Origin: Candidatus Moanibacter sp.
GTDB lineage: Bacteria > Verrucomicrobiota > Verrucomicrobiia > Opitutales > UBA2987
Length of the DNA stretch: 64,000 nucleotides
Direction of reading: 5' to 3'
NCBI GenBank assembly: GCA_965215885.1
Contig: CBDCEW010000081.1
Location: 1 to 64,000, forward strand
Shown: one piece after another, positions 4,223 to 39,700 of the stretch
Layout: each line of letters starts with the position of its first letter
Position numbering within the stretch: the stretch's first letter is position 1
Notes under the pieces: model-generated
Seen by the model: only the letters and a program-made list of their open reading frames with translations
What the model was told of the DNA's origin: nothing
Database searches by the model: none
Program-made: the position numbers and the translations under genes

Positions 4223-4463
4223 TCCGCTTATTTAGGATGTCGCTTCGCTCGGTACACAGAATAAGCGGACTAGAAAGTGAAACCGATTTGCAATTTAGTG
4301 AAAGTCCAAAGTCGAAGGTCGGAAGGTCGGAAGACAAGAGTCGAAAGTCAGAAGGTCGAAGGTCGAATATGTGGATTGCTTCGTCATTCTTCCTCGCAAT
4401 GACAGGCACCATGAAATCTCCTCCAGAGGTGATGCTAGGAATTCTGAGTTCGACTGATTCCAG

Positions 4464-4711
4464 GTACCTGTTCAGTGTGTCTGAGGCTGCCCCGGTCTTG
4501 TGCCGGGGTGGCGCACGCTACGAAACTACAATATGCGATCGGCACCACACACCCCTCCACCCTTCCTCTCTCCACGCATTCGAAACGCGAATGGGTGGAG
4601 AGAGGAAGGGTGGAGGGGAAGGTAGGGGCAACCGATGTGGGGCAAGGAACGTGCGCCACCCCGGCACAAGACCGGGGCAGCCTGCAATCGAAAGTAACGC
4701 TAAACACTTAC
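4464..4711. repeat. Nested palindromic REPIN/MITE-like element, empty copy
   Basis: 34-bp perfect inverted arms 4484-4517/4650-4683, 24-bp inner stem 4552-4575/4595-4618, imperfect outer ends GTACCTGTTCAGTG / CGCTAAACACTTAC. Confidence 0.9.
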
Positions 4712-7989: not shown

Positions 7990-9883
7990 CAGGGTAAAAG
8001 GATTCCAGGAAGCAACTAGCTGATAAGCAAGAAGATAAAAAAAGAGCTAAACAAACCCGAGGGAATCAGTCATGTTAAGATGGGATGAAAGACAAAAAAT
8101 CTTACCAACTGAATCCTTCGATAGATCGTTTAACTCTGCGTCTGGTCCTGCCCGAAGAGCAGGAGCGATTCAATGATCTATTGAAACAACATCATTATTT
8201 ACACAGTGCGGGCAGCGCAGGAGAGACCCTGCGCTATGTGGCGCAGATCGACGGGCAATGGATGGGCCTGCTCTTGTGGGGGGCCGCATCCTACCGGCTG
8301 AAGGATCGAGACGAATGGATCGGGAGGGACGGGGCGCAACGGCATGCACGATTGAAACTGGTAGTACAGAACCGGCGTTTTCTGATTTTGCCCGGGGTGG
8401 ATCTTGCAAATTTGGCCTCCAAGACGTTGGGTATGTGCCTGAGAGTCTTAGCCGATCACTGGCAGGAGGCTTTTGGCTATCGTCCCTTAGTAGCGGAAAC
8501 GTTCGTGGACCCACAGATTCACCGGGGCACTTGCTACGAAGCGAGCGGGTGGACGCCCTTGGGCTTGAGCGCGGGATATGGCCGCCAACGCGAAGATTTC
8601 TATCAACGCCATGAGCGTCCCAAGCAGATCTGGGTCAAACCCCTCAAGGCTAATGCCCTTGAGCTTTTGCGCGCTTCAGGGCCATTGCCCGCGGCACAGA
8701 GCCAGGCGCTCAATGAAACCGATAACTCCCATGCGGTCTGCCTCAAAGTGGAACAGATGAGCAGCCTGTGGGAACGCTTCAATCAGATAGAAGACTTCCG
8801 TCGTAAAGCGGGCCTTAGATATCGGCTCGCCACGGTCCTGAGCATGATTGTGCTCGGCACGATGTGCGGCAAACAGACCCTCAAGGGCATCGTGCGCCTG
8901 GCCCATCATCTCAATCAAGCCCAATTGCGCGCCTTACGCTCCTGGAAAAACCCCAAAACAGGCCGCTATAAGGCCCCTTGCTATGATGTCTTCTATCGGG
9001 TCTTGCAAAACGTAAAGGCCGAGCTCTTCGATAAAACCCTCACCGAATTCATCTGCTTACAAGACGGCTGTTTGCCCCGCGATATTGCCGTCGACGGCAA
9101 GACCCTCAAAGGCACAAACACCGAAGAATCAAAGGCTCTGCACCTGGTGGCCGCAGTCGATCACCAAAGCGCTCAAACCTTAGCCCAAGTCGCTACCGCC
9201 GATAAATCCAACGCGATCACCGCCGCCCAGACTCTCTTGCGAAAGATGCCCATTTTGGACGGCTCCACCTTCACCTTCGACGCCATGCATAATCAAAAAG
9301 AAACTGCCCACATCGTCGTCGAAGAACTCAGTGCTGACTATGTTATTCAAATTAAAGACAATCAGCCCAACATGCATCAATACGCTCAGAATCTCTTCAG
9401 CTCCACCCCCTTTTTCTCCACCAAACCGTGGACAATGACCATGGGCGACTCGAAATACGTCAAATAGCAACCCATTCTCTAAGCGCTCCCTCTGCCGGCC
9501 TGCCCCATGCCCGCCAGTTCGCCTGTGTGCAACGCACCTTCCATTATCCAAACAAAGCTGAACCTTCCTCTGAACGCTCTTACTACGTAAGCAGTCTCGA
9601 TCCCGCCGATTTGAGCCCTCAACAGTTCCTCTCGAAAATTCGCAACCATTGGTCGATCGAAAATAAAAATCATTACCCCAGGGATCGCTTCTTCGATGAA
9701 GATCGATGTATGATCCGTAATCATAACGCAGCCAGAATTCTTGCTGCATGCAGGCAACTGGTTCTCAGCCTCAAGTCTTCCATGGGCGCTGAATCCACTC
9801 CCGCACTCTGTGATGATTTCGTCTTTAACTTACATAAGGCCATCAATATCATCACCTAATGCTCCGAGAATCAAAATACCGTG
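7990..9883 (+). mobile_element. ISAs1-family insertion sequence
   Basis: 10-bp direct repeat TCTTTGTACA (7980-7989, 9884-9893); imperfect TIRs CAGGGTA.. / ..TACCGTG; transposase inside. Confidence 0.9.
8085..9859 (+). CDS. ISAs1 transposase with N-terminal DUF4338 (DruA-like) domain, split by a -1 frame change at a C5T5 run
   Basis: HHYL/RDEWIG/RFLILP/ETFVD..GTCY (DUF4338), then IAVDGKTLKG, TFDAMHNQK, IKDNQP; the second frame gives HGRLEIR, RNHWSIEN.HYPRD..FDED. Confidence 0.85.
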
Positions 9884-16580: not shown

Positions 16581-17381
16581 TTACCCCATCGTCAAACCGC
16601 CGTCTACAGCAATTGCCTGGCCGGTGATGTTGCGGGCTTCCTCTGAAGCAAGAAAGACGACGAGATTACCGATATCCTCTGGTGATTGATCCCTCCCCAT
16701 CGGCGTGTTCTTGGTGACGATGTCGTCATACATGGCTCGGGCTTCCATCCCCTCATAAGCTGGATTATCACGGGCAAGGAGAGGCGCCAACCGATGCCAG
16801 AAATTCGTCCAGACGAAACCGGGACAGACTGCGTTGACGTTGATGTTATGGGGACCGAGGTCCTTGGCCATGACACGTGTCAAACTTAAGAGGGCGTTCT
16901 TGGCTGCGGCATAGGCCGGAACAAACTGCGGGTCACGTTTCGCCGCGATTGAAGAGATGTTGATGATCTTGCCGGACTTACGCTCAATCATGTGCGGCGC
17001 CAATGCCTTGCTGAGAAAAAATGGGCCTTTGACGTGTACCGCGAAATTATCGTCCCACTCAGCTTCGGTGTGCTGGGTGAAGGGTGCACCTACCACCTTA
17101 CCGAAATGCCCCGCGTTGTTTACCAGAATGTCCACTTGGCCGAACGTCTGTATCGCCTTCTCCAGGAGGGTCCGGCAGTCTTCTTCTCGAGTGACGTCCG
17201 ATTTCACGGCGAGCCCTCGGCGGCCTAAATTGCTGATCTCCTCAATGCGCTTCTCCGCCCTCTCTACCTCGAGGTCCGACACCACGATGTCGGCGCCTTC
17301 CCGCGCCAGGCAGCTGCAGATTCCGTTCCCCATCCCGCCACCACCGCCCGTAACAATCGCCACTTTGTTTTCTAACCGCAT
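16581..17381 (-). CDS. Short-chain dehydrogenase/reductase
   Basis: TGGGGGMG, LVNNAG, YAAAK, ITGQAIAVDGG. Confidence 0.9.
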   Translation of the reverse strand: MRLENKVAIVTGGGGGMGNGICSCLAREGADIVVSDLEVERAEKRIEEISNLGRRGLAVKSDVTREEDCRTLLEKAIQTFGQVDILVNNAGHFGKVVGAPFTQHTEAEWDDNFAVHVKGPFFLSKALAPHMIERKSGKIINISSIAAKRDPQFVPAYAAAKNALLSLTRVMAKDLGPHNINVNAVCPGFVWTNFWHRLAPLLARDNPAYEGMEARAMYDDIVTKNTPMGRDQSPEDIGNLVVFLASEEARNITGQAIAVDGGLTMG

Positions 17382-17589
17382 AGGCACATTTTCTACCGCT
17401 CTTTGCGAATAAGGCGAAGATAAAATGTCAACCATGAGAACTTCATCGGGCCCCGCCTGAAAGGTGGTCTCAGGCGATGCCAGCACGTTGCTTTCAGAGA
17501 TGCTGTCTTCCATCCGAAAACTAACGGTGCAAATCTTTATGAATCGATGTACCTGTTTAGCGTTTCTGAGGCTGCCTCGGTCTTGCGCC

Positions 17590-18963
17590 CATAAGCGCTA
17601 ACTTGTTTGCTTGACATAGTGCATTTCCTGCTGTGGACTTCCGCAACAGGTTAGCAGAATTGAAGGGAGGTCGACCATGATGGATGAAGACTGGAGCGTG
17701 CTGATGTCTTTTTTCCCGCCGCAATGGAAAGAATTGGCTAAGAAGACCAACGCGTTGAAGGGATTGCGCCGGGACAAGGCACCTGGGAAGTTGCTGAGGA
17801 TTCTGATGGTGCACCTGGCATGTGGGTATTCGCTGCGCGAAACCGTGGTGCGTGCGCGCCAGGCGCAGTTGGCGGAACTGTCAGACGTAGCGTTGCTGAA
17901 GCGGCTGCGCAAGTGCAAGGACTGGCTTTATTCGCTGTGCGTGGCATTGTTTCGCGAGCGTGGCCTGGATTTGGGGGCGGTGGGGCAACGGGAGTTTCGT
18001 CTGATCGATGCGACGATGGTGAAGGAACCCGGGAAGACGGGCAGCTTGTGGCGTGTGCACTATAGCTTGCGAGTTCCTTCGATGGCGTGCGATTTTTTCA
18101 AACTTACGCCAGCGCAAGGTGAAGGCACCGGCGAGTCGCTTAGACAGTTTCCGCTGGCAGCAGGTGACTACGTGATCGCCGATCGGGGATACTGCCAGGC
18201 TTCCGGGCTTCAATATGCAGCCTCCCAAGGGGCTTTTGTAAGTATACGGCTGGCACCGCACAACATACGGCTGCTCGATCCTCGGGGAGAGGTTCTGAAC
18301 CTGACCGCCTGCCTGGAGCAGATCGGGGCCGGTGGCAAGGTGGGCGCTTGGCCAGTCATGGTGCCCGCATCGGATCAGCCCCCGTTGCCAGCGCGGGTGT
18401 GTGCCATCCGCAAAAGCGAGCAAGCGATCGCCATGGCCCACAAGAGATTGCGGCGAATCGCCAGCAGGCGGGGCGAGAAGCTGATGCCCGAAACGCTCTA
18501 TTACGCCGAATACGTCATGGTGCTGACGACTTTTCCTGAATCGCTCTTTTCCGCACTGGAGGTGCTCGAATGGTATCGTATCCGCTGGCAGGTGGAACTG
18601 GTCTTCAAACGATTCAAACAGATCGCACAGTTAGGACATCTGCCTAAGTATGACGATGAAAGCGCCAAGGCGTGGCTCTATGGCAAGCTCTTCGCGGCCC
18701 TGATCACCGAGAAGATCATTCAAAGTGCGATCTCTATTTCCCCCTGGGGATATGTCCTGGAGCCGGAAAAAACAGCAGAGTCGATGGCGTGAGTTTGCCT
18801 TCGTCTTCCATCAACTCCAGCGGGCCGTCGATCCCGCTGTGCCTTTGCGACAAGTGATAGAAAATTGGAACGATATAGCTCAAGGCTTAGCAGAGTCTCC
18901 ACGGCAACGCCGACCACAGTTAGAGGTCAGATTCCCAGGTCAGCAAACAAGTTAGCGCTTATG
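17590..18963 (+). mobile_element. IS4-family (IS186/IS231-group-like) insertion sequence
   Basis: 22-bp perfect TIR CATAAGCGCTAACTTGTTTGCT, recalled as resembling IS186 ends; 11-bp duplication GGTCTTG(C/T)GCC. Confidence 0.9.
17677..18792 (+). CDS. IS4-family DDE transposase
   Basis: LIDAT, IADRGY, YRIRWQVELVFKRFK (YREK motif); SD GGGAGG upstream. Confidence 0.92.
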   Translation: MMDEDWSVLMSFFPPQWKELAKKTNALKGLRRDKAPGKLLRILMVHLACGYSLRETVVRARQAQLAELSDVALLKRLRKCKDWLYSLCVALFRERGLDLGAVGQREFRLIDATMVKEPGKTGSLWRVHYSLRVPSMACDFFKLTPAQGEGTGESLRQFPLAAGDYVIADRGYCQASGLQYAASQGAFVSIRLAPHNIRLLDPRGEVLNLTACLEQIGAGGKVGAWPVMVPASDQPPLPARVCAIRKSEQAIAMAHKRLRRIASRRGEKLMPETLYYAEYVMVLTTFPESLFSALEVLEWYRIRWQVELVFKRFKQIAQLGHLPKYDDESAKAWLYGKLFAALITEKIIQSAISISPWGYVLEPEKTAESMA

Positions 18964-19473
18964 GGTCTTGTGCCGGGGTGGTGCACGCTATACAGCTACA
19001 ATAGGCGATTGCCACCGCCCGCCCCTCCACCGTTCCTTTCTCGCCTCAGTCCCGGCGCGACGCGCCGGGACTGAGGCGAGAAAGGAACGCTGGAGGGGCG
19101 GGTAGAAGCACACGGCTGATAGCAGGGAACGCGCGACACCCCGGCGCAAGACCCATAATTACGAAATTGGGTTGGAGAACCCAAAGTAAATGTTATTCAG
19201 GCACTTGCAAGATTCTATTGATTACATAGTATGCCAGAATGGAGTTTCAACGATTGTTGTGTGTGGGTTCGTTAGAGGTAGAGAGCTTTTCTTGCAGGTT
19301 TGTTTTCAGTTAGAAACTTGTTGAGTATTAATCAGTTACAAAAGCGCTTTGAACGGGGAGTTGATTTCTGGTGGCAATTGAGTAGAAGCGAAGGGAGCTG
19401 GAGAAAGTTGGTATTGGCATTGTATGTAAAAGAAAGTTTGCAGTTTTGCCTCCTTTCCATACTGTGCCGGTGC

Positions 19474-20190
19474 ATGCAAGAAGAGCTTTCGCGTAAAGAG
19501 AGGGAGGTGGTCGAAGCGGTACGGCGGGATCGGGTAAGCACGGTGTGGAGGCTGATGAAGGAGCAGAGGGTGTCGCGGCGAACGGTCTATCGGGCTTTGC
19601 AAAAATATGGCCATTACTCCAGTTACAATGCCAATTGTGGCTACCTGAGCTTGAAAGACATTCCGCGCTTTGACGGGGCCGGTTTGTGGCGTTTTCGCAA
19701 GGGGCGCTTTTCGCGCCACGGCACCTTGGAGGAGACCGTGGAGGCGGTGGTGGGAGCTTCGCTTTGCGGCTACACGGTGGCTGAGTTGGAGACCCTCCTT
19801 GGGGTACGGGTGCACAACCCCATAAGCGTGCTTTGTAGAAAGAAGCGGTTGAGTCGATACGATGAAGGGCGTCACTGCGTGTATGTCTCGGCCGGGGAAC
19901 AGGGCGGGGCCGAACAGAAAAAGCGGCGGCAAGGGCGAAGAACAGCGGCACAAGTTCAGGCAGGGGACCCCGGGGGCGCTTTGCAGGCAGCTCCCGAAGG
20001 GCTCGAAACGATGGTCGTGATCGCTTTGCTGGTCGCCTGTATCGGCCATCCCGAGGCCGGGGTCAAGGAGCTTGTCGAGCTTATGCAAGAGCAGGGAGTA
20101 GAGCTGAGCGGGGAGCAAATTGAGCGGGTGATGGCGTTTTACTCGCTCAAAAAAAAACCGGCCGATCGCGGTAGCGGAGCTGTTACATGA
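19474..20190 (+). CDS. IS OrfA, putative HTH DNA-binding accessory protein
   Basis: HTH-like VSRRTVYRAL and GYTVAELETLLGV; conserved in both copies. The upstream extension has a stop in copy 2, favouring ATG 19474. Confidence 0.7.
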   Translation: MQEELSRKEREVVEAVRRDRVSTVWRLMKEQRVSRRTVYRALQKYGHYSSYNANCGYLSLKDIPRFDGAGLWRFRKGRFSRHGTLEETVEAVVGASLCGYTVAELETLLGVRVHNPISVLCRKKRLSRYDEGRHCVYVSAGEQGGAEQKKRRQGRRTAAQVQAGDPGGALQAAPEGLETMVVIALLVACIGHPEAGVKELVELMQEQGVELSGEQIERVMAFYSLKKKPADRGSGAVT

Positions 20191-20191
20191 T

Positions 20192-22009
20192 TTGCGGGCA
20201 GAGGCTGAACGGGCCCTGCAAACGGTGGGGGCTGTGCCTGCGCAAACGAGTTATCGCTTCGATGCCCGGGAGGACGAAGAGGGTCCTTCAGAGGTGCGCA
20301 AGACCCTGCGCCGCAAGGTGGTCAGTTTCTCCTATGGATGCTTCCAGGCGGTGGAAGTTGTGCGCGAGCAGGGGCAAGGGAGCCACCGCAACAGCTACCG
20401 TTCTGCTCGCCTGGAACAGATCGTGCCCTCGCATAGTCGCTACGCTTACGATCTGATTGCCTATGTGGGCAAGCGATGTTTGTGCGAAAGCGCCACCCTC
20501 AAAGAGGTGCACAGGGAACTGCGCGAGGGCCCGGGGCAGCTGCAGATTGCTCAAAGCAGCCTCTATGAGATGCAGCAGAAGTTTCTTTTTTATCTGGGTC
20601 GGCTGCACGCCGCGGCCGCTCCGGTGCTTAAAGATTACCTGAGCGCTCGCCCTTGCCTGCGCTGGCTGGTGGATGGGACCGTGGAACCGCAGACGCCGGT
20701 TTTCTTCGCTGTTCAGGAAGCCGACGAAGGGATCCTTTTGGGCAGCTGGAAAATGCCTTCCGAACAGAGCGAAACGATCAGTGGCTGTTTTGCCCGGGCG
20801 GCCCGGGCTTTTGGCCAACCCCACCATGTCTATCATGATTTAAGCGCTCAGATCAGCAAGGCCTGCGAGAGCGAAACCTTCCAGGCCCCCCATGGCGTCT
20901 GCCATTATCATTTCGCCCGCAATGTGGGCGAACAGCTTTATCGAAAACCCCAGCAGATGCTCAACGGGCGCTTGCGGCAATTGAAGCTCATGGAGCGCAT
21001 GCGCGAGCAACGCAAACACATCACCGCAAAGCTCCGTGACGCCCTCCGTGAAAAACACGCCCTCGTCCTGGCCGATTTGCTCACCGCCAAAGCGCTCGCA
21101 GTGCCCTTCGATCCCACCCTTGCACGGGAACTGCTCATGGCCCTGCAATTGTGGATTTTGGATTATCCCTGCGACGGTCACCGCCAGGGCTTTCCCTTCG
21201 ATCCTTACCTGCTTTATTGGCATCGGCGGGTCGTGCGCGCCCATGCCGCCCTGGAGCAGTGGCTTGCCCGCGCTCCTGCCAGTTGCTCTGTTCTGCGAAG
21301 CTTCTTTCATCTTTCGACCGGGTTGAAGCAGTATCTGGCTGATGCCCTCGTCATCGAAGCCGCTACTATCTATGAAAACGCTTTTTGCATTTTCAGCGCT
21401 TTGCGCGATGCCCTTTGGCTCAGCGCCAGCGGCCCCTGCCCTTTAAGCGACCCTTATCTGTTGCAAGCAGGACAAGCCGCTGAGCTCACCGAGGCTCTCC
21501 AGTTGCTGCGTGCCCAATATCGCCAAAAAGGCGCCTCCCTGACCAACCCCTCGAAAGCCAAACTCTACCGCACCGTGGTCACTCATCTGGACAAATACTG
21601 GCAGCGGCTGCTTCCCCCACCGGCCCATCCAGACAGCGTACGCACGACCAATGAGCTGGAAGGCACCTGGCGCACCTCCAAGCGCAAACGCCGTCAAACC
21701 CACGGGCGCAAAAATCTGACGCGCGACTTTGAAGCGCTCCCCGAAGAATACATGCTCCTGGCCAACTTACACAATCCCCGCTATGTGGAGCTGGTTTTAG
21801 GCAGTATCGATAATCTGCCCCAAAAGCTTGCCCAGGCTGCACAGAAAGCACCCCCCTTCAGTCACTGGCGGGCGAACAGAAAAACCCTCGCCGTGGGTCG
21901 ATTGCCCAAAAAGCTCCTGCGAAAAGAAAACTTCCTTGAGGAACTCTTCGAAGTCTGTAATCGCCAGGATCAATCCTTAAACCCGCAACCCCATCGGATT
22001 GCCTCCTGA
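20192..22009 (+). CDS. IS OrfB, DDE transposase with Mutator/IS256-type CxxH motif
   Basis: WLVDGT (D1), VYHDLS (D2), CHYH, long helical insertion, RTTNELE.TWR..KRKRR (E). Confidence 0.8.
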   Translation: MRAEAERALQTVGAVPAQTSYRFDAREDEEGPSEVRKTLRRKVVSFSYGCFQAVEVVREQGQGSHRNSYRSARLEQIVPSHSRYAYDLIAYVGKRCLCESATLKEVHRELREGPGQLQIAQSSLYEMQQKFLFYLGRLHAAAAPVLKDYLSARPCLRWLVDGTVEPQTPVFFAVQEADEGILLGSWKMPSEQSETISGCFARAARAFGQPHHVYHDLSAQISKACESETFQAPHGVCHYHFARNVGEQLYRKPQQMLNGRLRQLKLMERMREQRKHITAKLRDALREKHALVLADLLTAKALAVPFDPTLARELLMALQLWILDYPCDGHRQGFPFDPYLLYWHRRVVRAHAALEQWLARAPASCSVLRSFFHLSTGLKQYLADALVIEAATIYENAFCIFSALRDALWLSASGPCPLSDPYLLQAGQAAELTEALQLLRAQYRQKGASLTNPSKAKLYRTVVTHLDKYWQRLLPPPAHPDSVRTTNELEGTWRTSKRKRRQTHGRKNLTRDFEALPEEYMLLANLHNPRYVELVLGSIDNLPQKLAQAAQKAPPFSHWRANRKTLAVGRLPKKLLRKENFLEELFEVCNRQDQSLNPQPHRIAS

Positions 22010-22249
22010 CAACGACTCCAGTGCCCTCCCTCTGCTCCCCATTTTCTTCATGCTCTAACCAGAGAACTCCACGCAATTTGCGGGCCAACCGAAATTCAGA
22101 ACGATGGGCACAAGACCGGGGCAGCCAGCAATCGAAGGCATGACGCTAAACACGTACGATCCGATCGGATCATAAAGATTTGCACCGTTATGTGGAGAGC
22201 AACGAGTCAGGCGGTTTGGTAAACAGGCGGCTAAATGGTTACACAACAG

Positions 22250-28950: not shown

Positions 28951-29504
28951 CCTCGCGGTGAAACAGAAAGAAATTGAAAAACGAATTGGATAATGAAGAT
29001 GGGGACACCGCTGAAAGAGCCGCGTTCTTGCGAACACGGCTAAACTGCGACATATCTCTTAGCTGCAGATGAGAATGCACCTTTACTATGTCATTGTGAG
29101 CGGAGGCTTTTATGAGCGATAAAAATTGTCAACTGACACGAACTGAACGGTGCCCGATCTGCGTGGTCGGCGCATCTCCAGCCGGGATTGTGGCCGCTGT
29201 GCGGGTCGCCCGGGAAGGGCAGAGGGTGATGCTAGTCTCGGGACACCGGCACATCGGAGGTGTTCTCTCAAATGGATTGAGCTGCTGGGACAGCTGGTAC
29301 GACGGCTTCCGCGCTCCGATCCAGGCGGATTGGTTGGAGAAGATCCGCCACCACTACCGCGAAACCTATGGCGAGGATTCGGAGGAGTTTCGGATCTCGC
29401 AAAGCGGTCCTTTCGGCGGGGGAAAGTATAAGGGCAGCTATACCTGGGAACCACACATCGCGGAACGCATGTTCGAGGAACTCGTTTCCGCGGAAACGAA
29501 TATC

Positions 29505-31876
29505 AGAACTCGCTATCATGCGGGTTGGCGGGCAGGGGGCAATCGCAGATACAATTCCCGGCTTTTAAGAGCTAAAGAAAACGGTAGGCTTCATCTTCGA
29601 ACCATCAAATTCGAAGAAAAATGGAGAAACCTACCGTCAAAGAAGAGACCTTCTTACAGTGCATCCTTGGAGTGGACAAGGGTAATCCCTCGATCACGGT
29701 CTATCGGGATCTGAGCGAAGGCAAACTGCACGTCTATTACGGGCATGAGCTTTTTGAAGTCGTAGAGGACGATCGGGAGCAAGTTGAATTCAAGCTATTG
29801 GTGGGGCGCCTCTACAATGCGGGGTTGAAGAAAGGGCGCTTAGAGAAGCAATTTGAGGTTGACCCCAAAACGATGAAGCGGTGGGGGGAGGCGCTTCAAA
29901 GCGGAGATGCCGAGACCTTAGCGCGAGTGCTGGCGGGACGCAGCGCTCATCGCAAATTGACGAGGGAAATCCGGAGTTTTGTGCGGGTGCGCTTCGGGCA
30001 GATCTATGGGGAGAGTCGGTATGGCTACAGCAAGAAGATACGGGGGGAGATCGAGGAGGTGTTCGGAGTTAACCTCAGTGGGGAAACTTTGCGCCCTGTC
30101 TTTAAGGAGCTTAAAGAGGCCCGGGCAAAGGAGGCCGAAGCCGAGAGGGCGCAAAATCGGGAGACTCCCTGGGATTGCCCGGAGGACTCGGGGAGGGACG
30201 AACAGGAGCAAGAAGCAGAAAATAGCCCCGAAAGCGAAGGGGACAATCGCAAGGAGTCTCCCGATTTTTCGAGGGAGAGCTCCGAAGCGGTGCAATGGTA
30301 TCGGCACCTGGGAGTACTTCTGTTCAGTGCCGCGCTCAGAGAAGTCGCTCAGATTGATCGCGAAGAGGGCTGGCTTTTGAAACAATGGGTGGCTTGCGGG
30401 TTGTTGGCCGCGGTCAATATCGAGCAGAGCAAACTGCTCGATCTCGAAGACCTGCAAAAACTCATCGGGCGAGTCCTGTATACCCCCTATCTGCAACGCC
30501 AAAGCCTTAGCGCCCTGGCCGATGAAGGGCTTTTAAGAGAGATCCTCAGAGTGAACGCGAGGGGCCTGAATGCTTCGGATGAAGAGAGCTTTTATTATGA
30601 TCCGCACACCAAACATTACACCGGAATGAGCAAGGTGCTGGCGGGATGGTGTCCGGGTATCCGTCTGGCCGACAAAGCGCTCCACAGCGATTTTATTCAT
30701 ACCCTCAAGGGCTATCCGATCTATTTTGCGAGTACCGACAACTATGAGGATATAAGGGAACGGTTTATCCCCAACTGCGAAGCGATGCTCGAGCTGGTGC
30801 AGTTGCCGGCTGATAAGAAGGTGAGCATTTACGTGGACCGGGCGATCGCCGCGGAGTGGTTTTACGAAGCCATCGTGGAGCATCCTCAACTCGAAATCAT
30901 TACCTGGGAAAAAGGTTACAAGGCCAGCGCCCAGCCCCTCCAACGGATCGACGGGCAGTTGCGCCTGCAGCGCGCGCGCAACCATGCCGAAGATCTCCAG
31001 GAGTATCATCTTCGCTATCAGCGGGGCCCCTGGAAGAAAAATCCTCAACTGGTGCAGTGGATCGTGGAGGCGACCAATCCAAAAAATCGAACCATTACCG
31101 TGAGCATCCTGGCGACCGATCAGCAGGCCCGAAATGAAGAGGTAATCAAAGGGATGTTCAGTCGCTGGATTCAGGAGAATGACTTCAAATACCTCGATAA
31201 GCACTTTGGGATTAATCAGATCACCTCTTATCGCACCGTCCACTACAAGCGATTAGCCCAACACCTTGAGGACAAGCAGGAGAAAAGCGGTGCCGCCAAA
31301 GCCCTCCTGAAGCAAAAACAGCAATGCCCCGAAGAATTGAAAAGACTGCTCCTGGCCGAGCATGCCCACCCGGGCAAAAGCGCCTCAAGGGGCGAAAAGA
31401 TCCGTCGACTCGATCAGGCCCTCAAAGCCCTCCAACTCGAACTGGAGCAAATCGACACCGAATGCTCGAGGCTGCAGCGCCTCATTGATGAAAACTATGT
31501 CCGCCTGGACACCGCTAACAAGTCCCTCATGGATGCCTTGAAAATCTTCGCCCGTAACAGCTTCTACAAGCAGCTCGAACCCTTTAAAGCTCGCTACAAC
31601 AACTATCGTGACGACCACGATCTGTTTCGCAATTTGACTCACAGTGACGGCGTTCTTATAGAGAGGGGCTGTGCGGTCGAAGCGCATTTATTCCCCACCG
31701 CAACTTATCCCCCTCGGGTGCAGGCGGTGGTGCTTGAGTATCTGCAAACTCTCAATGAGAAGCCCTTACTGATGCCCGACGGTTCAGGCCGAAGAATCAT
31801 CTTCCGACTGGGCAAAAAATCGGGATTTAAACTTGCGATTGCATAGTGCCTTTAGAGGGGCAATATAGTGAGGTCT
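29505..31876 (+). mobile_element. Unclassified insertion sequence (~2.37 kb)
   Basis: Direct repeat GAATATC (29498-29504, 31877-31883); TIRs AGAACTCGCTATCATGC / AGACCTCACTATATTGC (13/17). Confidence 0.85.
29621..31846 (+). CDS. Large putative DDE transposase (741 aa)
   Basis: YYDPH, YVDRA, RWIQENDFKYL triad-like motifs; N-terminal HTH (FEVDPKTMKRW); fills the element. Confidence 0.8.
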   Translation: MEKPTVKEETFLQCILGVDKGNPSITVYRDLSEGKLHVYYGHELFEVVEDDREQVEFKLLVGRLYNAGLKKGRLEKQFEVDPKTMKRWGEALQSGDAETLARVLAGRSAHRKLTREIRSFVRVRFGQIYGESRYGYSKKIRGEIEEVFGVNLSGETLRPVFKELKEARAKEAEAERAQNRETPWDCPEDSGRDEQEQEAENSPESEGDNRKESPDFSRESSEAVQWYRHLGVLLFSAALREVAQIDREEGWLLKQWVACGLLAAVNIEQSKLLDLEDLQKLIGRVLYTPYLQRQSLSALADEGLLREILRVNARGLNASDEESFYYDPHTKHYTGMSKVLAGWCPGIRLADKALHSDFIHTLKGYPIYFASTDNYEDIRERFIPNCEAMLELVQLPADKKVSIYVDRAIAAEWFYEAIVEHPQLEIITWEKGYKASAQPLQRIDGQLRLQRARNHAEDLQEYHLRYQRGPWKKNPQLVQWIVEATNPKNRTITVSILATDQQARNEEVIKGMFSRWIQENDFKYLDKHFGINQITSYRTVHYKRLAQHLEDKQEKSGAAKALLKQKQQCPEELKRLLLAEHAHPGKSASRGEKIRRLDQALKALQLELEQIDTECSRLQRLIDENYVRLDTANKSLMDALKIFARNSFYKQLEPFKARYNNYRDDHDLFRNLTHSDGVLIERGCAVEAHLFPTATYPPRVQAVVLEYLQTLNEKPLLMPDGSGRRIIFRLGKKSGFKLAIA

Positions 31877-33624
31877 GAATATCGAATTGATCCGTGAATA
31901 TGTTCCAAAGGCGGTGGAACGAGCCAACCGAAAGATTCGTGCCGTTCTTTTCGCTTCGGTCGAGGGTGGGGATTCGTTGCGTGTCGAGGCGGACTTATTC
32001 ATCGACGCCACTTATGAATCTGATGTCGCCGCACTCGCAGGGGTGCCCTACCGCATCGGCCGGGAAGATCGCAATGAATACAACGAGATCTATGCGGGAA
32101 AGATCTGGGTGAAGCGGAGCGGGAATGAGGCGAATTTTCTCCATGACAGCGATGAAGCATTACAGTGGCCGCGGGCAGCGCGTGCCGGGAAGCTCAATGT
32201 CCGGCCCTGGTGGGGAACAACCCAGGAGATTTTTTCGGAAAGCACGGGGGAAGGTGATGGGGGCGTTCAAGCGGCGAATTTTCGCGTGTGTCTCACTTCA
32301 GACCCCGAGAATCGCGTCGATGTTGCGGCGCCTGAGGGTTACAGGCGCGAGGATTTCTTACCCATCATCGAGAAGGATCCGGAGGGAGTGGAGTTATTTC
32401 CCCACCCCATCAAGTCAGGTCTCCTGAACTATCCGCTCGTGGCGTTCCCGGGAGTCATTCCGATTCCAGGAAAAAAGTGCGATTGGAACGCGGCCGCGAT
32501 TCCCGGTGGTGTCGACAATTACCCGAACGCTGATTGGGAAGGGCGCCGCGCCATTGTTAAGCGCTTCCGGGACTTCTCACTGGGATTGCTATATTTCCTA
32601 CAAAACGACGAATCGGTATCCGAGAAAGTCCGCAGGGAGGCGAATGTATGGGGACTGCCGAAGGATGAGTTTCAGGACAACGGTCACTTTTCCCATGAGT
32701 TTTACCTGCGGGAAGCGCGGCGCATCGTCGGGCGTTATGTCATGCGGGAAAGTGACGCTTGCATCGGCCGAGGATTGCGTCGGGCGCCGGTGCACAACGA
32801 CTCCATTGCGGTGGCCGATTGGATGATGGATTCGCACGACTGTTCACCCGAACGGATTCGGGGGGCGGAAGGCGATGGGTTCACCAGCCTTTCGGAATAC
32901 ACTCGGCCGGCGCAGGTTCCCTATCGGTCGCTTCTCACGAATGAGATCGACAATTTGATCATGGGATTAGGAATCTCCGCAACCCATGTAGCGTGGGGAT
33001 CGGTGCGCGTAGAGCCGACTTTAATGCATATTGCCGAATCGGCCGCTCTAGCGGCCGTTTCTTCGCTGGAATTGGGAAAAGCACCTGCCGACCTGGACGT
33101 TTGTCTGCTGCAGCGCAGGTTGGTGAATAGTCGGATCATGTTCAGCTTCTTCAATGAGTTCGACATGGCAACGAAGGAGCCGTGGGTGCAGGCCGTTCAA
33201 TTTCTTGGAACGAAAGGTTTTTTCTGTGACTACTTTGCCAATCCTGATGAACCCTTGACATCGGCCGTCGGGCGGGTTTGGGCAAGGGCGTTTGGGTCGC
33301 TTCTCGACGTTGAGACTGATTCAGGCAAGTGGGCGCGTGCGGTCCATCAGGCGGAACGCGGGAATCCTAACGAAGAGATCACGTTGGCTAAATATCAATC
33401 ATTGTTGAAAAAGGAGATGGAATATCGGGATCGGACTGAACGGACCGATGTTGCCCACGAAATTGAGGGTATGGAGTTGTCTCCTTTGGCTACCCTAACC
33501 AGAGGTCAGGCTTGTATGCTGGTCTGTCGTCTCCTGGATGAATGATGGCTACGTGTAGCAAGTTTGCCGCTATACGAGTCACACAAGTGATTGAACTGAC
33601 GTTGTATAATGCTATCTTCGAAGC

Positions 33625-36771: not shown

Positions 36772-37173
36772 CAGAATTAAGAGCCCGTAGGACTCTGATT
36801 CCATCTGTGTTAGGCGTTATGCCTTCGATTACTGTCTGCCCCGGTCTTGTGCCCATAATTACGAAATTGGGTTGGAGAACCCAAAGTAAATGTTATTCAG
36901 GCACTTGCAAGATTCTATTGATTACATAGTATGCCAGAATGGAGTTTCAACGATTGTTGTGTGTGGGTTCGTTAGAGGTAGAGAGCTTTTCCTGCAGGTT
37001 TGTTTTCAGTTAGAAACTTGTTGAGTATTAATCAGTTACAAAAGCGCTTTGAACGGGGAGTTGATTTCTGGTGGCAATTGAGTAGAAGCGAAGGGAGCTG
37101 GAGAAAGTTGGTATTGGCATTGTATGTAAAATAAAGTTTGCAGTTTTGCCTCCTTTCCATACTGTGCCGGTGC

Positions 37174-37890
37174 ATGCAAGAAGAGCTTTCGCGTAAAGAG
37201 AGGGAGGTGGTCGAAGCGGTACGGCGGGATCGGGTAAGCACGGTGTGGAGGCTGATGAAGGAGCAGAGGGTGTCGCGGCGAACGGTCTATCGGGCTTTGC
37301 AAAAATATGGCCATTACTCCAGTTACAATGCCAATTGTGGCTACCTGAGCTTGAAAGACATTCCGCGCTTTGACGGGGCCGGTTTGTGGCGTTTTCGCAA
37401 GGGGCGCTTTTCGCGCCACGGCACCTTGGAGGAGACCGTGGAGGCGGTGGTGGGAGCTTCGCTTTGCGGCTACACGGTGGCTGAGTTGGAGACCCTCCTT
37501 GGGGTACGGGTGCACAACCCCATAAGCGTGCTTTGTAGAAAGAAGCGGTTGAGTCGATACTATGAAGGGCGTCACTGCGTGTATGTCTCGGCCGGGGAAC
37601 AGGGCGGGGCCGAACAGAAAAAGCGGCGGCAAGGGCGAAGAACAGCGGCACAAGTTCAGGCAGGGGACCCCGGGGGCGCTTTGCAGGCAGCTCCCGAAGG
37701 GCTCGAAACGATGGTCGTGATCGCTTTGCTGGTCGCCTGTATCGGCCATCCCGAGGCCGGGGTCAAGGAGCTTGTCGAGCTTATGCAAGAGCAGGGAGTA
37801 GAGCTGAGCGGGGAGCAAATTGAGCGGGTGATGGCGTTTTACTCGCTCAAAAAAAACCGGACCGATCGCGGTAGCGGAGCTGTTACATGA
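37174..37890 (+). CDS. IS OrfA, copy 2
   Basis: Near-identical to 19474-20190. Confidence 0.7.
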   Translation: MQEELSRKEREVVEAVRRDRVSTVWRLMKEQRVSRRTVYRALQKYGHYSSYNANCGYLSLKDIPRFDGAGLWRFRKGRFSRHGTLEETVEAVVGASLCGYTVAELETLLGVRVHNPISVLCRKKRLSRYYEGRHCVYVSAGEQGGAEQKKRRQGRRTAAQVQAGDPGGALQAAPEGLETMVVIALLVACIGHPEAGVKELVELMQEQGVELSGEQIERVMAFYSLKKNRTDRGSGAVT

Positions 37891-37891
37891 T

Positions 37892-39700
37892 TTGCGGGCA
37901 GAGGCTGAACGGGCCCTGCAAACGGTGGGGGCTGTGCCTGCGCAAACGAGTTATCGCTTCGATGCCCGGGAGGACGAAGAGGGTCCTTCAGAGGTGCGCA
38001 AGACCCTGCGCCGCAAGGTGGTCAGTTTCTCCTATGGATGCTTCCAGGCGGTGGAAGTTGTGCGCGAGCAGGGGCAAGGGAGCCACCGCAACAGCTACCG
38101 TTCTGCTCGCCTGGAACAGATCGTGCCCTCGCATAGTCGCTACGCTTACGATCTGATTGCCTATGTGGGCAAGCGATGTTTGTGCGAAAGCGCCACCCTC
38201 AAAGAGGTGCACAGGGAACTGCGCGAGGGCCCGGGGCAGCTGCAGATTGCTCAAAGCAGCCTCTATGAGATGCAGCAGAAGTTTCTTTTTTATCTGGGTC
38301 GGCTGCACGCCGCGGCCGCTCCGGTGCTTAAAGATTACCTGAGCGCTCGCCCTTGCCTGCGCTGGCTGGTGGATGGGACCGTGGAACCGCAGACGCCGGT
38401 TTTCTTCGCTGTTCAGGAAGCCGACGAAGGGATCCTTTTGGGCAGCTGGAAAATGCCTTCCGAACAGAGCGAAACGATCAGTGGCTGTTTTGCCCGGGCT
38501 TTTGGCCAACCCCACCATGTCTATCATGATTTAAGCGCTCAGATCAGCAAGGCCTGCGAGAGCGAAACCTTCCAGGCCCCCCATGGCGTCTGCCATTATC
38601 ATTTCGCCCGCAATGTGGGCGAACAGCTTTATCGAAAACCCCAGCAGATGCTCAACGGGCGCTTGCGGCAATTGAAGCTCATGGAGCGCATGCGCGAGCA
38701 ACGCAAACACATCACCGCAAAGCTCCGTGACGCCCTCCGTGAAAAACACGCCCTCGTCCTGGCCGATTTGCTCACCGCCAAAGCGCTCGCAGTGCCCTTC
38801 GATCCCACCCTTGCACGGGAACTGCTCATGGCCCTGCAATTGTGGATTTTGGATTATCCCTGCGACGGTCACCGCCAGGGCTTTCCCTTCGATCCTTACC
38901 TGCTTTATTGGCATCGGCGGGTCGTGCGCGCCCATGCCGCCCTGGAGCAGTGGCTTGCCCGCGCTCCTGCCAGTTGCTCTGTTCTGCGAAGCTTCTTTCA
39001 TCTTTCGACCGGGTTGAAGCAGTATCTGGCTGATGCCCTCGTCATCGAAGCCGCTACTATCTATGAAAACGCTTTTTGCATTTTCAGCGCTTTGCGCGAT
39101 GCCCTTTGGCTCAGCGCCAGCGGCCCCTGCCCTTTAAGCGACCCTTATCTGTTGCAAGCAGGACAAGCCGCTGAGCTCACCGAGGCTCTCCAGTTGCTGC
39201 GTGCCCAATATCGCCAAAAAGGCGCCTCCCTGACCAACCCCTCGAAAGCCAAACTCTACCGCACCGTGGTCACTCATCTGGACAAATACTGGCAGCGGCT
39301 GCTTCCCCCACCGGCCCATCCAGACAGCGTACGCACGACCAATGAGCTGGAAGGCACCTGGCGCACCTCCAAGCGCAAACGCCGTCAAACCCACGGGCGC
39401 AAAAATCTGACGCGCGACTTTGAAGCGCTCCCCGAAGAATACATGCTCCTGGCCAACTTACACAATCCCCGCTATGTGGAGCTGGTTTTAGGCAGTATCG
39501 ATAATCTGCCCCAAAAGCTTGCCCAGGCTGCACAGAAAGCACCCCCCTTCAGTCACTGGCGGGCGAACAGAAAAACCCTCGCCGTGGGTCGATTGCCCAA
39601 AAAGCTCCTGCGAAAAGAAAACTTCCTTGAGGAACTCTTCGAAGTCTGTAATCGCCAGGATCAATCCTTAAACCCGCAACCCCATCGGATTGCCTCCTGA
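37892..39700 (+). CDS. IS OrfB DDE/CxxH transposase, copy 2
   Basis: Same as 20192-22009 less three residues (ARA). Confidence 0.8.
   Translation: MRAEAERALQTVGAVPAQTSYRFDAREDEEGPSEVRKTLRRKVVSFSYGCFQAVEVVREQGQGSHRNSYRSARLEQIVPSHSRYAYDLIAYVGKRCLCESATLKEVHRELREGPGQLQIAQSSLYEMQQKFLFYLGRLHAAAAPVLKDYLSARPCLRWLVDGTVEPQTPVFFAVQEADEGILLGSWKMPSEQSETISGCFARAFGQPHHVYHDLSAQISKACESETFQAPHGVCHYHFARNVGEQLYRKPQQMLNGRLRQLKLMERMREQRKHITAKLRDALREKHALVLADLLTAKALAVPFDPTLARELLMALQLWILDYPCDGHRQGFPFDPYLLYWHRRVVRAHAALEQWLARAPASCSVLRSFFHLSTGLKQYLADALVIEAATIYENAFCIFSALRDALWLSASGPCPLSDPYLLQAGQAAELTEALQLLRAQYRQKGASLTNPSKAKLYRTVVTHLDKYWQRLLPPPAHPDSVRTTNELEGTWRTSKRKRRQTHGRKNLTRDFEALPEEYMLLANLHNPRYVELVLGSIDNLPQKLAQAAQKAPPFSHWRANRKTLAVGRLPKKLLRKENFLEELFEVCNRQDQSLNPQPHRIAS

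Follow-up and report, generated by a model that had tools for sequence, protein, structure and literature searches.

Two insertion sequences of different DDE lineages, here called IS1 and IS2, are found almost exclusively at a single short GC-rich hairpin motif of a palindromic host repeat, P, in the genome of Candidatus Moanibacter sp. (GCA_965215885.1). The reading preferred here, with a probability of roughly 80%, is that the two are autonomous, unrelated elements, each of which would prefer a GC-clamped palindromic target of the kind offered by the P hairpins. The window (the whole 64,000-nucleotide stretch analysed, positions 1 to 64,000 of contig CBDCEW010000081.1) contained the following features.

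4464-4711, no strand assigned: empty copy of P, 248 bp, with ends GTACnTGTTTAGCG ... CGCTAAACAnGTAC
4490-4508, + strand: left-arm hairpin of the empty P, unoccupied, CCCCGG-TCTTGTG-CCGGGG (CCCCGGTCTTGTGCCGGGG)
4659-4677, - strand: right-arm hairpin of the empty P, mirror copy, unoccupied, CCCCGGTCTTGTGCCGGGG
17549-17589, no strand assigned: outer left arm of the occupied P and left half hairpin, ending with duplication copy GGTCTTGCGCC (17579-17589)
17590-18963, + strand: IS1, IS186/IS421-like IS4-family insertion sequence, 1,374 bp, in the left-arm hairpin
17677-18792, + strand: IS1 transposase gene, 371 aa
18964-19153, no strand assigned: core of P between IS1 and IS2, starting with GGTCTTGTGCC (18964-18974) and ending with GGCGCAAGACC (19143-19153)
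19154-22106, + strand: IS2, two-ORF insertion sequence, 2,953 bp, in the right-arm hairpin
19300-20190, + strand: IS2 ORF1, putative helix-turn-helix protein, with an ATG at about 19478 as the likelier start
20192-22009, + strand: IS2 ORF2, MULE/IS256/hAT-like DDE transposase, 605 aa
22107-22157, no strand assigned: right half of the right-arm hairpin and outer right arm of P, with duplication copy GGCACAAGACC (22107-22117)
36807-36853, no strand assigned: outer arm and half hairpin left of the second IS2 copy, ...CCCCGGTCTTGTGCC
36854-39797, + strand: second IS2 copy in the window, 2,944 bp, 99.5% identical
39798-39837, no strand assigned: half hairpin and outer arm right of the second IS2 copy, GGCACAAGACCGGGG...

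P is a two-hairpin palindrome of approximately 247 to 250 bp with one hairpin motif per arm, comprising a perfect 6-bp stem and a 7-nt loop. The empty copy and its two hairpins were located as described in the first-pass annotation. Folded as single-stranded DNA, this copy paired along its length into a single hairpin (-100.8 kcal/mol, z = -17.6), and in an Rfam check of 4464-4711 the gathering score was reached by no family. The hairpin CCCCGGTCTTGTGCCGGGG was matched twice in the window against 0.01 expected (at least two in 0 of 100 shuffles). The 11-mer GGTCTTGYGCC occurred eight times against 0.05 expected (at least eight in 0 of 100 shuffles), at 4494, 4663, 17579, 18964, 19143, 22107, 36843 and 39798. 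A genome of the same family (G006) contained 55 P matches, with the hairpin intact in 32 of the 33 contexts read. No IS2 homologue was found there with the IS2 query of the present genome, and the IS1 transposase gave only a distant match (25% identity). Because P is abundant in that genome while an IS2 homologue was not found, P is evidently older than, and independent of, both insertion sequences.

IS1 has perfect terminal inverted repeats of about 21 bp, starting with CAT (CATAAGCGCTAACTTGTTTGC), and is flanked by GGTCTTGCGCC and GGTCTTGTGCC. It encodes a complete IS4-family transposase, which matched Pfam DDE_Tnp_1 (E 5.8e-17) and NCBIfam NF033592 (IS4 family; 131.6 bits versus a cut-off of 115, model positions 3-331 of 332). 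IS2 starts with CATAATTACG, ends with CGATG and is flanked by GGCGCAAGACC and GGCACAAGACC. Its terminal inverted repeats are imperfect and about 22 bp long (CATAATTACGAAATTGGGTTGG / CATCGTTCTGAATTTCGGTTGG). The tail of ORF1 is Lys-rich and encoded by an A9 run (20149-20157); profile searches with ORF1 gave weak matches in the helix-turn-helix region only. ORF2 was full length without stops in 25 copies in this genome. Its match to NCBIfam IS256 (E 1e-6) scored 28 bits, under the 150-bit cut-off, and Pfam MULE was matched by 17 of 36 IS2 family members. The best Foldseek matches of an AlphaFold model of ORF2 (pLDDT 78) were the Hermes, ISCth4 and P element transposases. In common with IS256 (ISCth4) and MULE/hAT (Hermes) enzymes, the model shows an RNase-H-like DDE core in which a long helical insertion precedes the final catalytic residue, and a 9-bp duplication is compatible with the IS256/MULE group. 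IS2 is, however, twice as long as IS256, and differs from IS256, MULE and hAT elements in its separate upstream helix-turn-helix ORF, its transposase of about 600 aa and its strong palindromic target preference. The family looks to be unannotated so far. By sequence and model, the IS1 and IS2 transposases are unrelated and of different DDE lineages, and the coding capacity of each element is autonomous.

The P copy at 17549-22157 carries both elements, the IS186-like one in the left arm and the two-ORF one in the right, as first proposed. The sites look mirror-image because P is a palindrome. Duplications of GGTCTTGYGCC had been proposed for both, of 11 bp with CAT ends or of only the 7-nt loop with CCCAT ends. 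The 11-bp flanks were present, with one mismatch in each duplication; for IS2, CCCAT ends with a 7-bp duplication were ruled out by two non-repeat insertion sites. All three CAT-ended insertions in the window do lie at this site, but the third (36854-39797) has GGTCTTGTGCC on its left and GGCACAAGACC on its right, which are inverted repeats and not a duplication. Both of its flanks are outer arms of P, and the core is missing. Contig C38 is 99.7% identical to positions 1-24 kb of the window and has IS1 at the same position with the right hairpin intact (CCCCGGCACAAGACCGGGG). The core at 18964-19153 was mostly closer to the P copy at C105:108791 than to the same locus on C38, and just left of IS2 (19154) it carries the G variant of the repeat, as does C105:108791 and unlike the C38 allele. 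The inverted flanks of the third insertion and the one-base mismatches are consistent with recombination among copies or with chimeric assembly. Double occupancy of one P is not special: two repeats had both arms occupied (C81, C85) versus about 1.7 expected from the occupancy rate. About a third of hairpins are occupied, so one element per arm is expected now and then.

Genome-wide, a half hairpin adjoined all 13 IS1 ends (7/7 left, 6/6 right) and 60 of the 66 IS2 ends (31/33 left, 29/33 right). About 84 hairpins were free. Sites of the generic form GG-N7-CC numbered 29,848 in the genome, those of the form CCGG-N7-CCGG 353 and those of the form CCCCGG-N7-CCGGGG 83. In the occupancy comparison proposed by the first-pass annotation, insertions were concentrated at the hairpin relative to the generic GG-N7-CC sites, among which hairpin-class sites made up about 0.4%. 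Across 260 half-site matches surveyed, broken hairpins recurrently adjoined IS1 and IS2 ends only, although the genome contains several other high-copy IS families. Among the 33 IS2 ends of each side, the flanks were distinct in 29 cases on the left and in 28 on the right. These counts demonstrate a specificity of IS1 and IS2 for the hairpin site as read from standing copies, which are also shaped by selection against harmful insertions. They strongly support the suggested shared landing pad, in the form of convergent target choice.

The target habit appears from sequence comparison to be intrinsic to each family. Relatives of IS2 in other phyla were located in CC(A/C)CCGG-N7-CCGG(G/T)GG palindromes with 9-bp duplications, perfect in 5 of the 13 with both ends found. 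On either side, positions -15 to -9 of their flanks, counted from the end, read CC(A/C)CCG(G/A), in the register of CCCCGG in P, and CAAG/CTTG at -6 to -3 is also position-specific. Their own termini are conserved (C(A/T/C)AT..TTCCGAAATTYGGTTGG), and they have ORF1-sized ORFs with the same K-rich end. For IS1, the outermost 15 bases (CATAAGCGCTAACTT) match exactly those of an E. coli element that carries the annotation "IS4-like element IS421 family", and the IS1 transposase shares 31% identity with that of the E. coli element across 99% of its length. The E. coli copy is located in GGCGGGG-ATCACT-CCCCGCC with a 10-bp repeat, and the excerpted text of PMC5009759 gives the IS186 target as 5'-GGGG(N6/N7)CCCC-3' in either orientation. 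The E. coli target is a G-run/C-run palindrome. Of the IS1 target CCCCGG-N7-CCGGGG, only the inner GG-N7-CC matches the IS186 motif, and IS186 occupies scattered chromosomal sites and not a repeat family. That the P hairpin reads CCGG-N7-CCGG, and not the published GGGG-N6/7-CCCC, is a point against the preferred reading.

In the preferred reading, the host would supply the target approximately 120 times, conserved in each arm of the older P. IS1 would cut symmetrically about the dyad to leave an 11-bp duplication (GG-N7-CC), and IS2 about the same dyad to leave 9 bp (CCAT...ATGG ends) or 11 bp (CAT...ATG ends). The symmetry of the stems lets both elements insert in either orientation. Inverted-flank copies and copies with one base different would be secondary, by homologous recombination or gene conversion, or by chimeric assembly; the many IS copies that are 99.5-100% identical, and also P copies, could serve as recombination partners. 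We infer direct reading of the target by the transposases (or by IS2 ORF1), as double-stranded DNA and not as an extruded hairpin.

Among 30 paired IS2 copies, 18 had direct repeats and 12 had none (10 with inverted flanks, 2 mixed), a high share to ascribe to secondary events and a further point against the preferred reading. One IS2 copy outside P, at a site with a potential stem of only 3 bp, had a perfect 11-bp direct repeat (GCCCGATAGGC); another site had the loop sequence GCGCAAGACTC in common with the hairpin and a weaker stem. The duplication at the two non-repeat sites fits a length of 9 bp, with CCAT...ATGG ends, or, at the perfect site, of 11 bp with CAT ends. Since 9 bp fits better than 11 bp at a non-repeat site, the equal duplication length of IS1 and IS2 may be only apparent. 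The two cores flanking an inner-inner IS2 copy on C92 are identical at only 125 of 180 positions, which indicates that they came from different P copies. Hybrid repeats through IS-by-IS recombination are described for ISRm22 in REPs in the portion of PMC1525189 consulted.

Recognition of structure in place of duplex sequence, whether as a hairpin or cruciform extruded from the duplex or as a single-stranded hairpin at the replication fork, is unlikely. The perfect stem, the fold of the whole P and cuts placed symmetrically around the loop would suit it, but IS2 also used the 3-bp-stem and weaker-stem sites, and its relatives keep position-specific bases and not just any stem. DDE enzymes of these families generally use duplex targets. 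The published reading of IS186, in the same excerpt of PMC5009759, is that GC-rich flanks are the feature recognised. It is less probable still that the hairpin halves are long terminal repeats of an IS2-family element and P a miniature derivative or footprint. Long inverted repeats without duplication do flank 7 IS2 copies, 3 of the 13 relatives show the same inverted-flank pattern, and two relatives from differently labelled organisms (L058, L074) have flanks alike over about 20 nt. Against this, the identity of IS2 copies ends at CAT/ATG, with divergent sequence outside, more than half of the paired copies have direct repeats, the insertion outside P has no hairpin, and the C38 allele presents a precise empty site. 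Two identical copies from a single Thermoguttaceae genome (L065, L066) differ in sequence immediately outside the terminus, the same-family genome is rich in P with no IS2 homologue found, and the unrelated IS1 uses the same site.

An assembly artefact, joining unrelated flanks across the 1.4-kb and 3-kb multi-copy repeats at the locus or the third insertion, is given a similarly small chance. The assembly comprised 105 contigs (90.3% complete, 5.47% contamination), some of them near-duplicates; chimeric junction combinations and double counting of some copies are therefore possible. One IS2 flank, and not the other, is common to C10, C99, C81 and C105, and the A homopolymer within IS2 varies in length, with A8 in 16 copies and A9 in 18. 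Contigs from public runs, which may include the source sample, stop at IS ends and do not span an element. On the other side, one record (17587-19051) takes in the whole of IS1 plus 88 nt of core. Others cross junctions by 26 nt (17300-17616, unique flank into IS1), 23 nt (19061-19176, into IS2) and 27 nt (20163-22133, from IS2 into the right arm), overlaps below the 31-nt bridging threshold. The site preference is based on about 70 junctions, each of them a short-range feature beyond what misjoining across a repeat interior can create. Least credible of all is the suggestion that one transposase, that of IS1 (IS4 family) or of IS2, acts on the CATAA-type ends of IS1 and IS2 alike and mobilises both. 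CATAA does start both, as first noted, and with CAT ends the 11-bp flanking repeat has the same position. IS1 and the left end of IS2 agree at 12 of 21 terminal positions (counted by eye), leaving room for some cross-recognition, and both elements' ends fit CAT-N7-AA, the pattern of IS231/ISH8-type ends in Table 1 of PMC2266710. Beyond CATAA, however, the termini differ, and the right end of IS2 agrees with IS1 at only 8 of 21 positions. Each element has a complete transposase gene of its own from a different DDE lineage, copy numbers are unequal (about 33 IS2, about 7 IS1), and the IS2 relatives and, as excerpted, E. coli IS186 have comparable target habits independently.

Targeting of REP sequences by several IS families has been published (Tobes & Pareja 2006, PMC1525189), with ISRm22 (IS4), ISRm19 (IS110) and ISRm5 (IS256) in Sinorhizobium meliloti and ISPpu9 and ISPpu10 in Pseudomonas putida among the cases in the part of the paper used here. 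As excerpted, these resemble IS1 and IS2 in that (nearly) all copies lie at one fixed point inside a palindromic extragenic repeat, one genome's repeats are used by several IS families, and imperfect direct repeats are put down to recombination between copies. The ISRm22 insertion point is the palindrome axis. ISPpu9 and ISPpu10 also have a common insertion point, but both are IS110, whereas the elements sharing a point here are from different DDE lineages (IS4; MULE/IS256-like). The host repeat also differs (a 247-bp two-hairpin palindrome versus about 35 bp for REP), as do the 9- to 11-bp duplications and the lineage.

IS231A inserts in the ends (terminal repeats) of Tn4430. IS1397 and ISKpn1 (IS3 family) insert in enterobacterial BIMEs, in the loop or centre of palindromic units (as cited in the excerpt of PMC1525189). 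Families, duplication lengths and hosts differ between these three systems and the present one. We know of no second, unrelated element at the same point in any of them. IS1 and IS2 are a very clean new example of a known habit of insertion sequences, the targeting of palindromic repeats.

The palindromic repeat P, about 247 bp long, carries the hairpin CCCCGG-TCTTGTG-CCGGGG in each arm. An empty copy of 248 bp lies at 4464-4711 of the window, and a second copy is split by an IS186/IS421-like IS4-family element (IS1) and a two-ORF element (IS2). Within the window, both copies are intergenic. The hairpin 19-mer was matched twice in the window against 0.01 expected, and the 11-mer GGTCTTGYGCC occurred 8 times against 0.05 expected, a count reached in 0 of 100 shuffles. 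Degenerate short tandem units (GTCGAAGGTCGGAAG-like) were seen at 4300-4360, just upstream of the empty copy. The features were as follows.

4490-4508, plus strand: 19-mer CCCCGGTCTTGTGCCGGGG, left arm of the empty P
4659-4677, minus strand: 19-mer CCCCGGTCTTGTGCCGGGG, right arm of the empty P
17549-22157: second P, split by the two insertions IS1 and IS2
17590-18963: IS1, 1,374 bp; perfect termini CATAAGCGCTAACTTGTTTGC; between GGTCTTGCGCC and GGTCTTGTGCC
17677-18792: IS1 transposase ORF, 371 aa
19154-22106: IS2, 2,953 bp; termini CATAATTACG... and ...CGATG; between GGCGCAAGACC and GGCACAAGACC
19300-20190: IS2 ORF1, likelier start near 19478; about 230-296 aa; weak helix-turn-helix matches only
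20192-22009: IS2 ORF2, 605 aa
36854-39797: second IS2 copy, between ...CCCCGGTCTTGTGCC and GGCACAAGACCGGGG...

The first-pass annotation had placed all three CAT-ended insertions of the window at the hairpin site. The IS2 copy at 36854-39797 does have hairpin-arm flanks, as claimed. These flanks are inverted and not direct, both being outer arms of P without its core, a point that the first-pass annotation had missed.

Target choice was assessed in the whole genome assembly (6.36 Mb, 105 contigs, 90.3% complete, 5.47% contamination), of which the window is contig C81. IS1 was found as 6 complete copies and one truncated by a contig end, and its ends lay at a broken half of the hairpin in every case (7/7 left, 6/6 right; 13/13). 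IS1 ends in CAT, and an 11-bp repeat with 0-1 mismatch flanks 5 of its 6 complete copies: it is identical in 3 and differs by 1 base in 2 (C81 and C38, the same locus), and an indel was present in the sixth. For IS2, 33 left and 33 right ends were collected, and a hairpin-type half site was present at 31 and 29 of these, respectively (60/66). All hairpin-type junctions read ...GG-loop-CC/CAT or ATG/GG-loop-CC (slash, junction), giving one fixed insertion point. Direct repeats flanked 18 of the 30 paired IS2 copies, with 0-1 mismatch in 16 and an indel in 2; the flanks were inverted in 10 (7 with outer arms of P on both sides, 3 with P cores on both sides) and mixed in 2. A P carrying both IS1 and IS2 was seen twice (C81 and C85:69806-76917), where approximately 1.7 such cases would be expected with IS2 in a quarter of the hairpins.

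Intact free hairpins numbered approximately 84 when up to 2 mismatches were allowed, and 100 with up to 3 mismatches to the 19-mer. The genome contains 29,848 GG-N7-CC, 353 CCGG-N7-CCGG and 83 CCCCGG-N7-CCGGGG sites. Hairpin-class sites thus comprise approximately 0.4% of the generic sites, yet receive approximately 90-100% of insertions. This comparison of hairpin occupancy with other GG-N7-CC sites had been proposed together with the idea that P acts as a shared landing pad, and the outcome was strongly in favour of that idea. The genome is heavily colonised by insertion sequences, other families being present as tens to over a hundred near-identical copies. In a half-site census (260 matches), only the termini of IS1 and IS2 recurred after a broken hairpin. 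Four further multi-copy elements were noted in the window at 7990-9883, 29503-31879, 45391-47311 and 49903-51696 (approximately 1.9, 2.4, 1.9 and 1.8 kb), with tens to more than 100 copies each at 96-100% identity across contigs; none of the four was found at the hairpin site in the census.

IS2 was found at three distinct non-hairpin sites.

C105:15923/11044: GCCCGATAGGC, perfect 11-bp repeat
C89 (left flank) and C97 (right flank): (A/G)CGCAAGACTC
Right end only: GCGACAAGCGC

A 9-bp duplication with CCAT...ATGG ends suits IS2 at all of these, and the perfect site is also compatible with an 11-bp duplication and CAT ends. The alternative CCCAT ends of the first-pass annotation, with duplication of the loop only, were excluded for IS2 by the three sites.

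A second repeat family of about 14 copies was also observed, with a single related hairpin, GAAATC-CCCCGG-CCTCGCG-CCGGGG-ATTGTTAGG (for example C98:148360 and 148416, C83:51283 and C102:37887). It forms a one-sided flank to the left of IS2 at C103:189814 and to the right of IS2 at C32:23382; its use as a negative control for loop specificity was dropped on account of these two IS2 copies.

The IS1 transposase matched Pfam DDE_Tnp_1 (E 5.8e-17) and scored 131.6 bits against the NCBIfam IS4 model NF033592, above its cut-off of 115, with positions 3-331 of the 332 in the model covered. In tblastn, an element of E. coli plasmids that RefSeq names "IS4-like element IS421 family transposase" shared 31% identity with it across 99% of the IS1 protein. 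An E. coli IS421-family copy starts with CATAAGCGCTAACTTAAGGGTTG and has the 10-bp flanking repeat GGATCACTCC within GGCGGGG-ATCACT-CCCCGCC. IS1 is identical to IS421 in its first 15 terminal bases and may fairly be labelled IS186-like. It resembles IS231/IS186-like IS4 elements in its 5'-CAT termini and in a repeat within 10-12 bp; CAT ends, 10-12-bp repeats and target specificity are given for IS231-type elements in PMC2266710, including its Table 1. For IS186, the mutation-accumulation study PMC5009759 gives the target 5'-GGGG(N6/N7)CCCC-3', in either orientation, and states that the GC-rich flanks rather than the core are recognised; in PMC3071312, the passages on IS186 concern a mutation only and hold nothing on targets. 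IS1 sites differ from the IS186 motif, reading CCCCGG-N7-CCGGGG with only GG-N7-CC in common. This mismatch bears on identity with IS186 and not on IS4-family membership.

ORF2 of the window's IS2 had no match in Pfam. Its sole NCBIfam match was IS256 (NF033543; E 1e-6), at 28 bits far below the 150-bit cut-off. Among 8,000 scored candidates, 284 homologues were retrieved at E <= 0.001, with approximately 42-49% identity; most lay on contigs of 2-4.5 kb, and named sources called them "hypothetical protein". In an alignment of 36 family members, 17 matched Pfam MULE (PF10551) at E <= 0.01, the best of them at 4.5e-6. An AlphaFold model of ORF2 (mean pLDDT 78.4) retrieved the transposases of Hermes (1.3e-5), of the IS256-family element ISCth4 (2.1e-5) and of the P element (1.5e-3) in Foldseek, at low TM-scores of 0.23-0.40. 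These matches place ORF2 among RNase-H-fold DDE transposases of the MULE/IS256/hAT type that carry a long helical insertion, and not among IS4/Tn5-like enzymes. D161, D216 and E490 were invariant and fit as a candidate DDE triad. The family profile gave 0 matches to PDB chains at E <= 1, and a tblastn search of 72,556 plasmids with ORF2 gave no match. No functional name for the family was found in the sources searched, and no model of the scanned libraries passed its cut-off. The IS2 family is widespread in metagenomes.

IS256-family elements usually have one ORF of approximately 400 aa, a length of 1.2-1.5 kb and 8-9-bp repeats. IS2 differs from this layout in its two ORFs and 2,953 bp; its 9-bp repeat reading is compatible. 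A run of nine A residues (20149-20157) was observed at the end of ORF1, where the ORF2 frame (+1) is already open. Eight A residues (A8) are present in 16 of the genome's IS2 copies and nine (A9) in 18, minor variation follows the run directly, and contigs from public runs vary at 20157-20161. The run could be a slippage site fusing ORF1 to ORF2, or a homopolymer sequencing error. Five IS2 copies of approximately 4.86-4.88 kb are each broken by an insertion of about 1.9 kb (C105:11044-15923, C99:132929-137804, C96:90392-95267, C79:35592-40468 and C72:31719-36576). The break points within IS2 vary (about 80, 732, 2590 and 2906), and the C96 and C79 inserts match the 1.9-kb element at 45391-47311 of the window.

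The two transposases, one matching the IS4 model and the other MULE/IS256/hAT-like, have nothing in common beyond the RNase-H fold, which bears out the description of IS1 and IS2 as two unrelated transposons. The further suggestion that one transposase mobilises both would account for the common insertion point; it is not needed, and the different DDE lineages and a target habit that belongs to each family separately are evidence against it. For IS2, this habit was followed in 32 related loci; the MAGs that hold them carry the labels Desulfobacterota, Planctomycetota, Alphaproteobacteria, Acidobacteriota and Chloroflexota, among others. The relatives share the two-ORF layout, with a Lys-rich ORF1 end, and conserved termini C(A/T/C)AT..TTCCGAAATTYGGTTGG, which both ends of IS2 fit. 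Identical copies in one genome (L065 and L066) had unrelated flanks directly outside the terminus. When the C of C(A/T/C)AT is taken as the end, perfect 9-bp repeats flanked 5 of 13 two-ended relatives (L063, L065, L066, L073 and L076); 3 of 13 had long inverted flanks and 5 of 13 neither kind. Inspected by eye, most relatives' flanks had CC(A/C)CCG(G/A) at -15 to -9 on both sides, in the same register as the CCCCGG of P, and CAAG or CTTG at -6 to -3 in about 10 of 36 true ends, as in P. The family-wide target therefore looks like a palindrome, CC(A/C)CCGG-N7-CCGG(G/T)GG, with a 9-bp duplication.

In L058, L059 and L067 the inverted flanks agree at 24-25 of 26 nt and the target is not duplicated, a layout like that at 36854-39797 of the window. 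In L059 the inverted repeat recurs approximately 70 bp further out, and the flanks of L058 and L074 are alike over approximately 20 nt, though the organisms are labelled differently.

The most far-reaching reading, put tentatively at a probability of about 0.4, is that IS2 represents an undescribed, phylum-spanning family of about 2.75-2.95 kb, with a helix-turn-helix ORF, a MULE-like DDE transposase of approximately 600 aa and termini C(A/T/C)AT..TTCCGAAATTYGGTTGG. Its target would be a near-site-specific palindrome of approximately 21 bp, CC(A/C)CCGG-N7-CCGG(G/T)GG, in which CTTG is preferred at the centre and 9 bp are duplicated. The resident hairpin would then have been taken over as a landing pad by IS2 alongside an IS186-like element, which would have arrived at this dyad independently. 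If this is true, the unduplicated copies between long inverted flanks, which recur in this genome and in 3 of 13 relatives, could be products of a regular secondary reaction at palindromes with two hairpins, and not accidents.

P is older than, and independent of, IS1 and IS2. It was present in 2 of 31 genomes searched, namely this genome and G006, which is 8.3 Mb in size, belongs to the same family and gave 55 matches; IS2 ORF2 was present in this genome only (1/31), and G006 had only a distant match to the IS1 transposase (25% identity). In G006 a 14-mer occurred 71 times against 4 for a control, and hairpins were intact in 32 of 33 contexts read. Across 23 intact P copies of this genome, the hairpin and its immediate flanks were the most conserved columns, the rest being only approximately 70-80% alike. 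P (247 bp, two hairpins) folds as one long hairpin and has terminal inverted repeats GTAC...GTAC. A MITE would be expected to have terminal inverted repeats, a duplicated target on either side and a related autonomous element; for P, no consistent flanking duplication was seen across 16 copies with termini found, and no parent element was found.

Two candidate identities for P were set aside. No Rfam family was reached at gathering score; the 26 matches at E <= 1 were all below it and mostly to microRNA-precursor models, that is, generic hairpins, so P was not taken as a known RNA. A bona fide REP is a short palindrome outside genes, as a rule in a genome that also has a RAYT transposase. A RAYT-mobilised REPIN had no support, the genome having 29 Y1_Tnp matches with a hairpin within 4 kb at only 1 of 20 loci checked. 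Recurring motifs flank some P copies (CTGTCGGACTT / AAGTCCGACAG, or AAATCTCAC on both sides), for example at C7:10323-10567, C75:53782-54028, C44:35909 and C97:61501. GCCCGATAGGC, the one clean non-repeat target of IS2, lies directly beside the P copy on C7. P may lie within a larger repeat or form a portion of one.

Contig C38 is 99.7% identical to 1-24 kb of the window apart from IS differences. IS1 lies at the corresponding position on C38, with an identical C/T mismatch, but the right hairpin is intact (CCCCGGCACAAGACCGGGG) and IS2 is absent. Given the 5.47% contamination, this suggests that the assembly contains two strains or variants that were not collapsed. The window core between IS1 and IS2 differs from that of C38 at several clustered positions, most of which agree with the P copy at C105:108791-111983; there, IS2 lies between the same GGCGCAAGACC/GGCACAAGACC pair and the left hairpin is free. 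From this agreement, the G/A mismatch beside IS2 appears to have arrived with a tract from another copy, by gene conversion or recombination with another P-IS2 copy, and not by point mutation in a fresh duplication. The same recombination explanation is offered in PMC1525189 for ISRm22 copies with hybrid repeats.

For the copies with P cores on both sides, a giant target duplication was considered, both IS2 ends joining the two hairpins of one P. The flanking cores of the C92 copy with cores on both sides are identical at only 125 of 180 positions, and the left flank of the corresponding C97 copy has only approximately 60 nt of P. These copies therefore join cores of different P, so a single-event giant duplication was rejected and exchange between IS2 copies was supported. 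Copies with two outer arms may derive from two direct IS2 copies, one in each arm of a single P, through deletion between them; alternatively, a P with one insertion may have lost its palindromic core. Several contigs (C10, C99, C81 and C105) have one flank in common and not the other, as either real population heterogeneity or chimeric assembly would produce.

Part of the window was found in 20 listed public runs, 8 of which hold at least half of the sampled words. Contigs from 4 runs in 4 studies, some of which may be the source sample, were compared; they break at IS ends, as usual for short reads. One record spans 17587-19051, which is IS1 plus 88 nt of core. In other records the overlap across the junction was 26 nt within IS1, 23 nt within IS2 and 27 nt beyond the end of IS2, each below the 31-nt threshold for bridging. 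The IS1-core junction is thus the only one bridged by more than 31 nt, and these contigs are neutral on long-range linkage, neither for nor against.

IS1 and IS2 compare with REP-recognising IS (type 1 association, Tobes & Pareja 2006) in having 13/13 and 60/66 ends, respectively, at a half hairpin, with the same insertion point in the repeat at all hairpin-type junctions. REP-targeting is described in PMC1525189 for members of the IS3, IS110, IS4, IS256 and IS5 families, as are two IS with a common insertion point and an IS4 member inserting at a palindrome axis. REP-targeting by IS is therefore already known; less ordinary here are two DDE lineages at the same dyad with such fidelity, and the membership of IS2 in a widespread family.

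The system is a natural experiment in target choice, in which two unrelated DDE transposases in one cell use the same dyad of the same 19-bp motif. Fidelity is about 90-100%, and several other high-copy IS families in this genome ignore the hairpin. Because two DDE transposases converge on it, the hairpin is a compact, testable substrate for the reading of palindromic targets, and it may also serve as a candidate safe-harbour site. The genome illustrates how the spread of IS, here about 40 insertions, can be steered away from genes by a repeat family already resident there; recombination between copies of the repeat is then driven by the arrays of identical IS that result.
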